Below are positions 1 to 13,069 of a stretch of 27,435 nt of DNA, one piece after another. The notes under the pieces are model-generated. The model had not been told where the DNA came from and made no database searches. It saw nothing but the letters and a program-made list of their open reading frames with translations. This stretch comes from a virus. The translations under genes and the position numbers were made by a program. The DNA lies in the UHGV virus genome UHGV-0266262, one strand, 5' to 3'. The first letter of the stretch is position 1. The number at the start of each line of letters is the position of its first letter.

Positions 1-45
1 TAAATAAAAAACAATCAATCCTCTTATAAAAACATTTTTACTATA

Positions 46-86
46 CATCGCCATGTTGAACGATCAACTATCCAACATGGCGATGT
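46..86. repeat. 14-bp perfect inverted repeat (acatcgccatgttg / caacatggcgatgt) with 13-nt loop, downstream of the tailspike stop
   Basis: Read directly: 46-59 is the exact reverse complement of 73-86. Not followed by a canonical U-run on either strand. Confidence 0.5.
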
Positions 87-229
87 TCATACAGAGATAA
101 AACACTCGTATTAAAAGTAAAAAGTAGTCATCCCATATGGGATATAATTAAAACTATCAATAGCCATATCTTATCTAACAAATCAAGTTACAAACCATAT
201 TTTAACATATATGCGCCCCTGCCTGTGAA

Positions 230-2728
230 TTATAATTTGCATTCATTGTCAAAAAGTTTTTTTTCAATCGCTGCAAGACGTGACTCTATTTTTTCGATTC
301 TTCTACGCAAATAAGCAGACTCAAGCCATAAGCACTGGTCAGCACGGATACCCCACCTATTTCCGGCCTTGCGTACCAGAGTTCGCTCTTCTGTTTCGTA
401 TTCTTCTTCCTTCTCAATTTCGACACCATCCACAACTTCAGTAATCGTCCTGACCGCCATCACTGGCTCGTATTTATCATCCCATTCATCGTAACAGAGA
501 AGGCCAAACCGGGTCCCATCAATCCCATGAGCGAGGAAAGCATCTCGCACCTGTTGTGCTATGACACCAAAATGCCAGCGGGCACCATCTCCCTTTTCCC
601 TGATAGCCTCAAGCCAGCGAAAAGCTACGATCCTGATATCTCCCCATGCATCCAAAATTGCATCACCTTCATAACCAGGGGACATATTCAGACTGAGTTC
701 ACTCGTTGTTAGCGGGTCGCTTTTTTCCCTACCATCTGAGGTGTTTATTGAGCCTGAAACAGCATAAATCTGAGTTGGCCTGTTATCTGGTACACCAACA
801 CTGTAAGAATTATCCAGATAAGGATGCCAGTGACCATTTGGACTTACTTTCCATCTCCAGACATTATTACTTCCTAGATGTAAATCAGCCCCATTCGCAG
901 CCATTAATGCTACATTAGAGGTACTCATATACATCTGAAAATAACCAACGCCTTTTCTCTGCCATTCATAAAGCAAACCGGTTCCTTGCTCGTTGTTGAA
1001 CTTTAGTGCTTTTATAGGTGAGTTTTGTTCCCAGGTTGTATTATCTGAATAAATTACATGAGGAACCGCCTCTGGATTATCAGAGATACATATTTCTTTA
1101 GATGGTAGAGATAGCGTTCTTTTATCTCCTGCACCAAGCGCATAAATCAGAATGGTACGTCTGGTTGCCCCCATAACATCAGAATGTTCAGATACTATTG
1201 TTACCGATGGATAAAGAACGCCATCGTAATCAACAAAATGCATCCCTTCTGACTCGCGGAAGGTAGGGGTAGAGCCAATAATTCTAGGTAAATCCGTATC
1301 ACCCAAATTAGAAATGGCTTTCTGCACATCATTCCCCAACAGATCACAACTTGATAAATATTGAGTCTGCCCAAACTTAGTATTTCCACAATACATATAC
1401 AGATGTGCTCCATCAGAACAAAATCCATTAAGTGATGTTGTTTCATCACCACCGACTTGTGAAAGTTGAAGAGTAAACTCATGAGTACACAGGGCGGAAT
1501 AATCACCGGGTTTATCAAAAATATCAGTGGAAAATACACGAAACGTTTGCTTATTGTATTCGCCATTGTCGGTGAAACGGATAATCATCCATTTTCCGTC
1601 TAATGTAATAGTCGGAGTAGTTGAACTACCCGCTGTACGATTTCCTTCTACAACCCTAAACATTTCAGGAGAATCTATTTCCCCCTCGGAGTTGCTCCTC
1701 CAGGAAAATCTAACAACCCCATGTGAACCACCTACAGAAAAATCAAAGTCAGTATGGGCAGTAGAGCCTGCCGGTGTATCTGGTGCTGTAGTCCATAACT
1801 TAATCGTATTATCTATATTCTGTACCGCTATTCCCTGATGACCCAGCCTGTCCTCAGGAAGCATAAAATCAGAAGATGTATTTTTAATTTTTGAATCAGC
1901 AGAATATTTATTCCAGACAGAAACAGTAGTAGGGTTTCCATCTATTTCTGTATTGTGATTGGAATAATAAGCTCTGCTTACAGGATCATATGCAAAAGTT
2001 TGCAATGTTCTTATCTGTCCGCGACCATTAGCAATTGGTATAAACCGTATAGCGGCATTAGACTCATGTCCAATGGCATTAATGTCCCATGCAGGTCGCT
2101 TGCTTGTAACTAGTTCACCATTAACAGGAATGACTTTCCCTCCAACCAACCATTTCCCGTTAATATAGGTATTCCTGAAAAACGTTCTGGAGGTAAAATA
2201 AGTTTTACCTCGCATATCAACAACCATAGACGTAACATAATCTTCCAGTTGTTCAAATGCCTGTGTATCATCCGCAATGCCATCACCTTTTGCTCCCCAG
2301 CCACGTGGATCTGTTTCATCACGCCATCGTGCAATCTGCAATTCGGAATATTTTTTAGCACCATCCGGGTCTTCTAATTGCTGCCGTAGCTGATCCGGGT
2401 CATACTTCAGTACGTTAGGAAAATAGAACTGCTGCGCTCCATACGCATCATAAACAGCCATAGAATGACCTTGCACAGTTACGAACTTGGAAATCTGTCC
2501 GTTGTATACCGGGTATCCAGCAGCATTGATAACGATTGGCTGTGGCACCTGAACATAAGTACCATCTTCTCGTTCCAGATATACTGGAATCTGGTTTTCT
2601 GGATTTAGCGGATCTGTGTCAATCTTACCGATATAAATTTTTCCATTTGCTACGGTTTTAAAAGAACTAGCCATTGTGAAGAGTTGCGACGGCATACCTA
2701 TCACAACATTTGGAGTTATATTAGGCAT
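230..2728 (-). CDS. Tailspike protein: P22-like N-terminal head-binding domain, divergent central receptor-binding domain, C-terminal intramolecular chaperone (peptidase S74-like) domain
   Basis: ORF 230..2821; first ~120 aa after MPNITPNVV closely resemble my recollection of the P22/Sf6 tailspike N-terminus ([22 protein letters not shown] ... [13 protein letters not shown] ... NVLKYDPDQ). C-terminal ~160 aa carries the S74 chaperone pattern (FRW ... HFGVIAQQV ... YDEW ... [21 protein letters not shown]) preceded by TSDGREK (Ser..Lys spacing). Start set at ATG 2728 (AGGA 9 nt upstream); ATG 2737 or 2821 are possible alternatives. Confidence 0.85.
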
Positions 2729-3068
2729 ATTAGTCATCCTGTTTGAAGATTTAGATATTGAAGAAAACGGAATGACTGCAGACAAAGATGCAATTGTTTT
2801 GAAAAATAACCTTCTATTCATTTAAAAACCATGCAACATGAACAAAACGATTATTTTACAATACTCAAGAATCTTGATCAACAGGCATATTATTTATGCG
2901 CTTAATGCGTCACTTACAAAAATAAAAACAAGTACTACCTTTATTCCTATCGTCCATGATTTTTATTTTCAAACATTATTAAATAACAATTCCTATTTAT
3001 AATATCTGTCATTTAATTTGCTCCAAATACAAGGAATCGCCGCAGTGATTCATTATCAATCAAAAAAT

Positions 3069-3147: not shown

Positions 3148-3399
3148 ATGGGAAGAGATGACCCGCAATTTAATCTGCGGCTACCTTACGAATTAAAGGA
3201 AAAACTAAAACAGCGAGCCAAATCCAATGGCTGCTCTCTTAATTCAGAATTAGTTCAGATAGTGACTGATGCTGTATCAAGGCCATCCAAAATTTCAGGC
3301 TATCGAGACGATGCAGAACGCATCGCTGATGAGCAGTCCGAACTTGTTAAGAAGATGGTGTTTGATACGCTGAAGGATTTGTACAAAAAAACCACCTGA
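3148..3399 (+). CDS. mnt: Mnt repressor (ribbon-helix-helix, Arc/Mnt family)
   Basis: 83 aa; near-identical over the C-terminal half to P22 Mnt as I recall it (GYRDDAERIADEQSELVKKMVFDTLKDLYKKTT) and similar at the N-terminus (MGRDDPQFNLRLPYELKEKLKQRA). GAGG 8 nt upstream of ATG. Confidence 0.9.
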   Translation: MGRDDPQFNLRLPYELKEKLKQRAKSNGCSLNSELVQIVTDAVSRPSKISGYRDDAERIADEQSELVKKMVFDTLKDLYKKTT

Positions 3400-11815: not shown

Positions 11816-13069
11816 TTACTGCCCGGCAATAACGATGCCCGTATATTCAGGAACAAGTACAGAGCAACCATACAGAGTGGTGAAACGAGCAGTGGTTACG
11901 CCTTTGATGTGGTCGAAGGCGTAAGACATGATCAGCGTAGCGCCCTGCTCGGTGGTTGCTGTCATTACCTGTGGACCCTGACCAGTCGGGAACGCCAGTT
12001 TGCCGTACATCAGCTCAACAGAACCATCAGCCCAGAACAGGTTAGCCGGTGCGGCATTTTTGTTGAGAATGGTAATTGCTGCACCATTTGCCGCGTTAGC
12101 ATCAACGTTTGCATATGGTCGGCTGGCGACATCCGCGTTGTCAGGCGGCAGAATTTTCGGGGAGATAGTTACTGTCGTTCCGCTTACTGCCAGAACGCGG
12201 AATACCTGCGGCTGCCCGGTGGTATCTTTGGTGATCTGGTGTACGGAATTCACCCCTGCGATGGTAAACGCATCGCCAACCTGCAAACCTTCAGCAGATA
12301 CCGTAATGGTCCCCTGTCGGTTATCCACTGGCATATCGTTAGCATCTTTCGCTTCAACCTTGTGCGCAGGTTCAGCCGCCAGCGTCAGGGAAGTTGCTGT
12401 ACCCTTCGGAACACGACCAGAAATATCGGTCTTGTAGCTATCGAAGGACGCAACCGGAGGGATCTGCGCTTTTTCGTATGCTGTCAGGGTTGCGCCCTGA
12501 GCATAGGCACGGTGACCAAGCTCGCCAGCAAGGTCTTTGTAGTTGAAGGGGTTCCAGAAAGAGCGACGGTTGATACCCTGAGGTACACCAATCGCCGTCA
12601 TGGTGGCATCAATACCTGCCGCACAGTTCCACAAATCACGGCCCTGTGAACCAGTGGTTGAGTCAGCCATTGTGATCACGTTAGTAGCACGCTGCGTGAC
12701 CATGGAAATCAGGTCAGAGTCAATCTGTGCAGCAAGGCGCATACCTGCGGCGCGACCAGCTTCAGTTTTATGCTCAGGGTCACGCATTTCACGCGCATCC
12801 AGAGTGTACAGAATGTTTTTCGGCTCCTTGAACACAGAAGGAACAAGGCGCTGAACCAGTGCTGTTGGCGTTTTGCTGCTGAGGTCGAGGCCTTCCTCAA
12901 TGTTCATGTGGTAATGCTGCGGACGATACAGAACATCACCTGCTCGCTGCATTGCTGTATCACCGGGACGGAATTTTTTAGCGTTACGGGAAACTACGCA
13001 GGCGGCCTCAAAGCCTTCAACGTAGTTTTCGAACATGATTTCAAGGTCTTTTGCTAATTGGTTAGCCAT
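11816..13069 (-). CDS. Major capsid (coat) protein, P22 gp5-like
   Basis: 417 aa; position after the scaffold gene; size and composition fit P22/Sf6 coat proteins. Confidence 0.85.
   Translation of the reverse strand: MANQLAKDLEIMFENYVEGFEAACVVSRNAKKFRPGDTAMQRAGDVLYRPQHYHMNIEEGLDLSSKTPTALVQRLVPSVFKEPKNILYTLDAREMRDPEHKTEAGRAAGMRLAAQIDSDLISMVTQRATNVITMADSTTGSQGRDLWNCAAGIDATMTAIGVPQGINRRSFWNPFNYKDLAGELGHRAYAQGATLTAYEKAQIPPVASFDSYKTDISGRVPKGTATSLTLAAEPAHKVEAKDANDMPVDNRQGTITVSAEGLQVGDAFTIAGVNSVHQITKDTTGQPQVFRVLAVSGTTVTISPKILPPDNADVASRPYANVDANAANGAAITILNKNAAPANLFWADGSVELMYGKLAFPTGQGPQVMTATTEQGATLIMSYAFDHIKGVTTARFTTLYGCSVLVPEYTGIVIAGQ

Follow-up and report, generated by a model that had tools for sequence, protein, structure and literature searches.

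Genes flanking the spacer

The stretch of DNA analysed here (the window, 27,435 nucleotides) is a fragment of a P22-like (Lederbergvirus-type) E. coli prophage, and its first 229 positions form an AT-rich, non-coding spacer between two convergent prophage genes. No open reading frame of 20 or more amino acids lies inside positions 1-229, and the 229 bases are 100% identical across 13 public loci (L002-L011 and L120-L122).

The gene on the right of the spacer encodes the tailspike. It occupies positions 230-2728 on the minus strand, with its stop codon at 230-232, and the late operon ends with it. Its product combines a P22-type head-binding domain (Pfam PF09008) with a C-terminal Peptidase_S74 chaperone (PF13884). 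The reading frame can be extended to an ATG at 2821, which would give a protein of 863 amino acids, and gene callers are split between this length and 832 amino acids; the start of the 832-residue form, at 2728, is favoured on the basis of the alignment with the N-terminus of the P22 protein and of other gene calls. The 31 open codons that precede the P22-type start (2729-2821, minus strand) encode an extension that resembles a twin-arginine signal motif (RRxFxK), a likeness that is probably fortuitous, and a promoter-like site is found just upstream of it, from 2881 to 2853.

The gene on the left encodes a family-2 glycosyltransferase (PF00535) and is referred to below as the GT2 gene. It has a low G+C content and lies on the plus strand, so that it converges with the tailspike gene, and its TAA stop codon is found directly to the left of window base 1 in 13 of 13 loci; from these identical copies we infer that a GT2 gene probably also adjoins base 1 in the contig from which the window itself is taken. 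An identity look-up places the exact tailspike protein on 24 contigs, the corresponding look-up with the neighbouring protein contributed three more loci, and in all the loci shown the tailspike gene is followed by the 229-nucleotide gap and then by the convergent GT2 gene. The contigs that reach further continue, about 1 kb beyond the GT2 gene, into the host bio region (ybhB-bioA-bioBFCD-uvrB).

Composition and relatives of the spacer

The G+C content of the spacer is 30.6%, lower than in the window as a whole (47.9%) or in the tailspike gene (41.5%), which bears out the AT-richness described in the initial annotation of the region. The GT2 gene has the same value (30.6%), whereas the tailspike stands apart at 40-46%.

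Searches for relatives of positions 1-229, in databases that may leave out near-identical records, with megablast and blastn among phages, complete E. coli genomes and plasmids returned no match, and none was found in the set of 5,426 complete E. coli genomes. The exact hairpin patterns of the spacer were also sought in genome contigs and viral contigs, where none was found, while in 401 genomes of the family of Escherichia sp. E1V33 (G001) the matches were confined to short AT-rich ones attributable to chance, for the most part in genomes 0.3-0.8 Mb in size. A search of the spacer against Rfam 15 at a permissive E-value produced only noise, the highest-scoring model, an unrelated viral hairpin, reaching 16.8 bits where the cut-off is 70.

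The limits of this private sequence can be traced on both sides. Nucleotide similarity to other S74 tail genes ends at about 262-275, some 30-45 nucleotides inside the tailspike gene, and the blastn homology to a GT2-like gene in a capsule locus ends 13 nucleotides past the stop codon of the GT2 gene. The last ten or so tailspike codons and the spacer are thus private to the present prophage lineage, and no relative was found for the interval from about 14 to about 262.

Two candidate sources in that capsule locus (L012, described below) were considered and rejected. Homology between the spacer and the region that follows the 75%-identical GT2-like gene was set aside as unproven: in a MAFFT alignment the spacer looks 70% identical to the intergenic region of L012, but the local score has a z of only 2.8 relative to shuffles and the blastn homology does not reach beyond 13 nucleotides past the stop. 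Capture of the last tailspike codons from kpsS was rejected as well, since kpsS terminates at a different place and encodes an unrelated C-terminus.

The two palindromic elements

The whole spacer folds better than 200 of 200 shuffled sequences on both strands, and it contains two palindromic elements. The one nearer to the tailspike gene (element A) is a perfect 14-nucleotide palindrome, ATCCCATATGGGAT, which lies at 130-143, exactly as initially annotated, and is the only one of its kind in the window. Its occurrence is only mildly beyond chance, as a perfect 14-nucleotide palindrome appears in 2.5% of 20,000 shuffles of positions 1-229. The one nearer to the GT2 gene (element B, 45-86) is an inverted repeat with a perfect 14-bp stem formed by positions 45-58 and 73-86, which are 100% complementary, around a loop of 14 nucleotides, and it is the only inverted repeat with 14-nucleotide arms in the window. 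The initial annotation had placed this repeat at 46-86; the repeat is real and its arms have the length given, and its true start, at 45, is one base away. Inverted repeats with arms of only 10 nucleotides and loops of 3-30 nucleotides occur in just 0.9% of 20,000 shuffles of positions 1-229, and since even these are already rare, the element B hairpin is far beyond chance. Both elements are single: neither a site related to element A nor second copies or half-sites of either element are present in the window or in L002.

The resemblance of each element to an intrinsic terminator was evaluated by requiring a stem that contains G and C, a loop of 3-8 nucleotides and a T-rich run within 0-2 nucleotides of the stem, all downstream of a stop codon. 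On the minus strand element A has these sequence features, although it is weak. Together with its tail (111-144) it is picked out as a terminator-like site in scans of both the window and L002, with 6 pairs, of which 3 are G-C pairs, a 4-nucleotide loop and the tail ACTACTTTTT. The stem-loop, UAUCCC-AUAU-GGGAUG, spans positions 144 to 129 and thus encloses the palindrome at 130-143. On the same strand ACUACUUUUUACUUUU comes next, and the element lies 85 nucleotides past the tailspike stop. Its weakness is apparent from the fold, which has an energy of only -6.8 kcal/mol (z -2.1) and is equalled by 8 of 200 shuffles, and from the T-run, which begins only after ACUAC.

Element B lies 44 nucleotides past the GT2 stop and 143 nucleotides past the tailspike stop. 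The fold on the plus strand has an energy of -22 kcal/mol (z -6.8); on the minus strand, where G-U pairing contributes three extra pairs, the RNA forms 17 pairs around an 8-nucleotide loop with an energy of -27 kcal/mol (z -6.0). The element does not appear in the output of the intrinsic terminator scan, and it departs from the requirements in two respects: the loop on the plus strand (14 nucleotides) exceeds 8 nucleotides, and neither strand has a U-tract beside the stem, the tails being UCAUACAGAG on the plus strand and AUAGUAAAAAUG on the minus strand.

Strong hairpins of this kind are also found in related prophages (L092-L097), in which spacers that are not homologous to the present one carry a strong hairpin with no U-tract 6-40 nucleotides past the GT2 stop. 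These analogous hairpins contain no compensatory change, only one-sided changes. Because the 13 copies of the spacer are identical, neither structure draws support from covariation or conservation.

The position of the prophage-host junction

The initial annotation raised the possibility that a prophage boundary lies within 1-229, a proposal to be judged by alignment with host genomes and by a search for the matching attachment core at the other end of the prophage. The sequence to the left of the window can be followed in the public copies. Window base p corresponds to base 12822 - p of L002, and in this locus the order leftwards from the GT2 gene is a promoter-like site, a P arm resembling that of the lambda attP, the 15-bp lambda core GCTTTTTTATACTAA, the host B' arm, ybhB and bioA. 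The core is at L002:14968-14982, which is 2,147-2,161 bp to the left of window base 1. In the other copies the distance from base 1 to the core is about 2.0-2.4 kb, running from 2,107 bp in L003 to 2,370 bp in L122; it varies because a repeat tract in the GT2 gene varies in length. At L002:14713-14986 the sequence shares 87% identity with the lambda region annotated as attP/Int site, and its identity with a stretch of HK106 labelled "similar to lambda attP" is 92%.

The host side of the core was delimited by a BLAST alignment of L002:14400-15560 with the 5,426 complete E. coli genomes, which gave 5,429 matching records. In a sample spread over these records most rows, that of a K-12 laboratory strain included, start at query position 569, which corresponds to L002:14968, where the core begins. 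The remaining sampled rows start at query positions 274-378 and so extend over part of the phage side of the core as well, as would be expected if those genomes carry other prophages at the lambda attachment site. By this alignment the junction falls some 2.1 kb to the left of the window, and the boundary proposed within 1-229 has to be given up in favour of the other possibility that had been named, a junction beyond the window, which the core 2,147 bp to the left of base 1 in L002 substantiates.

The core at the other end of the prophage is present in L121, where a second copy has a lambda-type int gene on one side and host ybhC on the other, beside a lambda-like P' arm, in a locus that keeps the same GT2-spacer-tailspike end. 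The prophage in L121 is a remnant (L121:8875-20306, about 11.4 kb between the two lambda cores) in which the GT2 gene, the spacer, the tailspike gene, int, an ant-like gene and a small number of early genes remain, and which has lost all of the head and tail-assembly genes that are present in the other loci. A separate walk towards attL by way of a lambda P-like protein led only to unrelated lambdoid prophages. The prophage therefore integrates at the lambda attachment site between ybhC and ybhB and not in a tRNA gene. This location explains why no tRNA 3' fragment had been noticed near the tailspike, an observation that ARAGORN supports, finding neither a tRNA nor a tRNA fragment in window positions 1-3000 or in L002:12000-15600.

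Two further features were seen in these loci. An IS605-family OrfB/TnpB-like gene (376 amino acids) lies between bioA and ybhB at L120:7260-8390 and L121:7069-8199, and this insertion is absent from L002 and L122. An inverted partial duplication of the ejection-protein genes gp7, gp20 and gp16 is found by a cI-like repressor gene at L005:1294-8218, and it may be either a rearranged prophage or an assembly artefact.

Window positions 1-229 are internal prophage sequence and not a prophage-host junction. Several features could make them look like an attachment region whose palindromes serve as recombinase or IHF sites, with attR or attL inside or adjoining the spacer: the sequence is AT-rich and non-coding, it lies just past the tailspike gene, and a public virus record (IMG/VR) ends exactly at window base 230, which leaves 1-229 just outside it. 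The probability of this explanation is nonetheless close to nil. The spacer has neither the shared core nor the directly adjoining host DNA of a lambda-type attL or attR, and it has no duplicated tRNA 3' segment of the kind that marks a tRNA-targeting site. No lambda core is present in or near 1-229, the only match in the window at three or fewer mismatches being at 3378-3392. The lambda core and the P arm are instead about 2.1 kb further to the left, the sampled rows of the host genomes mostly align from that core outward, and a phage GT2 gene stands between the spacer and the junction in 13 of 13 copies. The end of the virus record, whose completeness is estimated at 55% (CheckV-style), coincides with the edge of a gene, which suggests gene-based trimming; the record misses about 2.4 kb of prophage, made up of the spacer, the GT2 gene, the promoter region and the attP-derived arm.

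The GT2 gene and its repeat tract

The GT2 neighbourhood is characterized by a promoter-like site upstream of the gene (TTCACA-17-TATAAT, which agrees with the consensus at 11 of 12 positions), by a deviant G+C content (30.6% versus 47.9%) and by a downstream hairpin that has no U-tract. A cassette layout of promoter, gene and hairpin would agree with the match in G+C content between spacer and gene, with the promoter-like site and with the hairpins at the corresponding place in L092-L097.

Just to the left of window base 1, and hence outside the window, the 5' part of the GT2 gene contains a perfect (AGCC)n tract. The number of copies is 29 in L002 (13956-14071), 19 in L003 (13956-14031), 30 in L004 (8437-8556), 8 in L005 (13956-13987), 6 in L120 (9977-10000) and 81 in L122 (9677-10000), and it is at least 28 in L121, where the tract extends across a scaffold gap. 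In the four loci whose flanks were compared (L002-L005), the sequences on either side of the tract differ by 0-1 base over up to 7 kb. The full frame of 454 amino acids is obtained only with 19 copies. Diverged alleles of the gene in other prophages (L093-L097) have the same tract with 5-23 copies, and many assemblies break at it. The tract looks like a slipped-strand on/off switch, similar to neuO of CUS-3; a full-text literature search found no paper on an AGCC switch.

A GT2-like gene with no AGCC tract is present in Escherichia sp. E1V33 (L012:145-8927), with 75% protein identity and 82% nucleotide identity. It is the last gene in region 2 of a group-2-type kps capsule locus, where it faces kpsS/kpsC in convergent orientation and follows a gene for an IspD-SDR fusion (ribitol-phosphate-type). 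The similarity of the two genes suggests that exchange may take place between capsule loci and prophage conversion cassettes.

Comparison with known systems

The annotated P22 genome (NC_002371) has, in order, gene 9, a terminator, the convergent genes gtrCBA, a promoter, the attP core and int. The initial annotation had assumed that in P22-like prophages the tailspike gene is the last one before the attachment site; this does not hold for P22, which has gtrCBA between gene 9 and attP, or for the present prophage, in which the GT2 gene takes that place. The shared arrangement consists of a tailspike gene that ends the late genes, a non-coding spacer bearing a hairpin, one or more convergent genes that modify surface glycans, a promoter near attP and the attachment site, and the present spacer accordingly holds the P22-type position between convergent tailspike and conversion genes. 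The two spacers differ in their contents. That of P22 is 58 nucleotides long and has one canonical bidirectional terminator, AAAAATGGGTG-TAAA-CACCCATTTTT, with a fold of -17 to -21 kcal/mol, whereas the present one is 229 nucleotides long and combines a weak terminator-like hairpin with a strong hairpin that has no U-tract. A distant BLAST search of 1-229 against 50,697 phage records, the P22 reference included, detected no homology to the P22 spacer. P22 also has three gtr genes and its own attP, in place of one cytoplasmic-type GT2 gene and a lambda-type attachment site between ybhC and ybhB. The integration target of P22 is the tRNA gene thrW.

The likeness to lambda concerns the real junction, which resembles the gal-bio site in having the core GCTTTTTTATACTAA, the 87%-identical P arm and a B' arm by ybhB-bioA, and in L121 a B-O-P' junction beside int and ybhC; positions 1-229, unlike a lambda attachment site, contain no core-like or arm-like sequence. 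The GT2 gene and spacer also resemble in part the morons of lambdoid phages, in that their G+C content is 30.6% in a prophage of about 48%, a near-consensus promoter-like site precedes the gene and a hairpin follows 44 nucleotides past the stop. They differ from morons in that this hairpin does not have the U-tract of the factor-independent terminators that are usual there.

A further parallel is neuO of CUS-3 from E. coli K1, a repeat-switched contingency gene for glycan modification which, in a P22-like prophage, lies by the tailspike gene near the attachment end; the CUS-3 record (CP000711) annotates 19 heptanucleotide repeats in neuO, beside siaK1. CUS-3 neuO is on the tailspike strand, next to int, and has a 7-nucleotide unit, while the present gene is convergent, encodes a GT2 enzyme and has a 4-nucleotide unit, and the likeness concerns the neighbouring gene and not positions 1-229. 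The product of neuO is an O-acetyltransferase.

The role of the palindromic elements

The reading that best accounts for these observations is that positions 1-229 are a spacer between the convergent tailspike and GT2 genes, that the junction lies about 2.1 kb away, and that the palindromic elements are transcript-end signals; a probability of roughly three in four is assigned to this reading as a whole. Elements A and B would act as the end signals of two converging transcription units. A late transcript would pass the tailspike stop and, 85 nucleotides further on, form element A followed by ACUACUUUUUACUUUU, which would serve as a weak intrinsic terminator. In P22-like phages the late transcripts are antiterminated, and for that reason read-through of element A is to be expected. 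Polymerases that continue past element A would then meet element B as a hairpin of 17 pairs and -27 kcal/mol, while a GT2 transcript arriving from the other side would form the same element, with 14 pairs and -22 kcal/mol, 44 nucleotides past its stop. Since neither strand of element B carries a U-tract, the element is less likely to be a canonical intrinsic terminator than a stem-loop that protects the 3' ends of both transcripts or causes pausing, and most likely it would combine this function with that of a barrier between the convergent units. The initial annotation had mentioned a terminator and a protein-binding site as possible identities of the elements, and the first of these fits element A, which is terminator-like on the tailspike strand, while a binding site finds no support in a second copy or an adjacent promoter.

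The possibility of a binding site can be evaluated more closely for element A, which might be the operator of a dimeric DNA-binding protein that controls, for example, read-through, so that ATCCCATATGGGAT would function as DNA and not as an RNA hairpin. A perfect 14-bp dyad that occurs only once in the window would suit such a protein, as would the weakness of the possible RNA hairpin. An operator here is nevertheless quite improbable, because the site is solitary, neither the window nor L002 containing another or a related copy, and because its location is at the 3' ends of the two genes, far from any 5' end; the nearest promoter-like match agrees at only 9 of 12 positions and overlaps element B, a palindrome of this length arises in 2.5% of the shuffles of the region, and the adjacent T-run fits a terminator. 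Element B could alternatively be a site of RNase III processing or retroregulation, like sib of lambda, at which antiterminated late transcripts are cleaved. The cut would define the 3' end of the tailspike mRNA and remove antisense transcripts that run on into the GT2 gene. A perfect duplex as long as 14-17 bp with no U-tract, extra G-U pairs that form in the tailspike-sense RNA only, a location at which antiterminated transcription must be handled and the recurrence of hairpins with no U-tract at the same position in related prophages are all consistent with this proposal. Classic RNase III substrates are about 20 bp or longer, however, and the stem of element B is shorter than these; there is moreover no Rfam match, and the identical spacer copies provide no covariation, so that the proposal is judged unlikely.

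It is also conceivable that the palindromes have no function and are incidental relics of an illegitimate recombination event that brought together the tailspike gene and a GT2 cassette of low G+C content. Outside the present prophage lineage the spacer has no relatives, and the homologies on its two sides stop close by, at 13 nucleotides past the GT2 stop and, for the S74 tails, about 30-45 nucleotides inside the tailspike gene. This account is unlikely in view of the perfect 14-bp stem, which is extremely unlikely to arise by chance, and of the need of convergent genes for transcript-end signals, which P22 meets with an annotated terminator at the same place.

A more elaborate proposal goes further. 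The spacer may belong functionally to a portable glycan-modification cassette under the control of a repeat switch, consisting of the promoter, a leader, the (AGCC)n tract, the GT2 gene and the hairpin, which elements A and B would insulate from antiterminated late transcription. The insulation would be brought about either by a sib-like RNase III cut or by a barrier to convergent transcription. This proposal is speculative and considered unlikely to be correct. If it were true, then the expression of the GT2 gene in the lysogen would be set only by the stochastic repeat switch, and the gene would be shut off cleanly upon the switch to lytic growth.

Implications

The spacer between the tailspike and GT2 genes is a routine intergenic gap with likely transcript-end hairpins, in an arrangement that has been known since the annotation of the P22 genome. 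Automatic boundaries such as that of the virus record at 230, which coincides with a gene edge, should not be read as attachment sites. If the hairpins do insulate a repeat-switched GT2 gene from late transcription, they would constitute an extra regulatory layer for phage-borne contingency loci.
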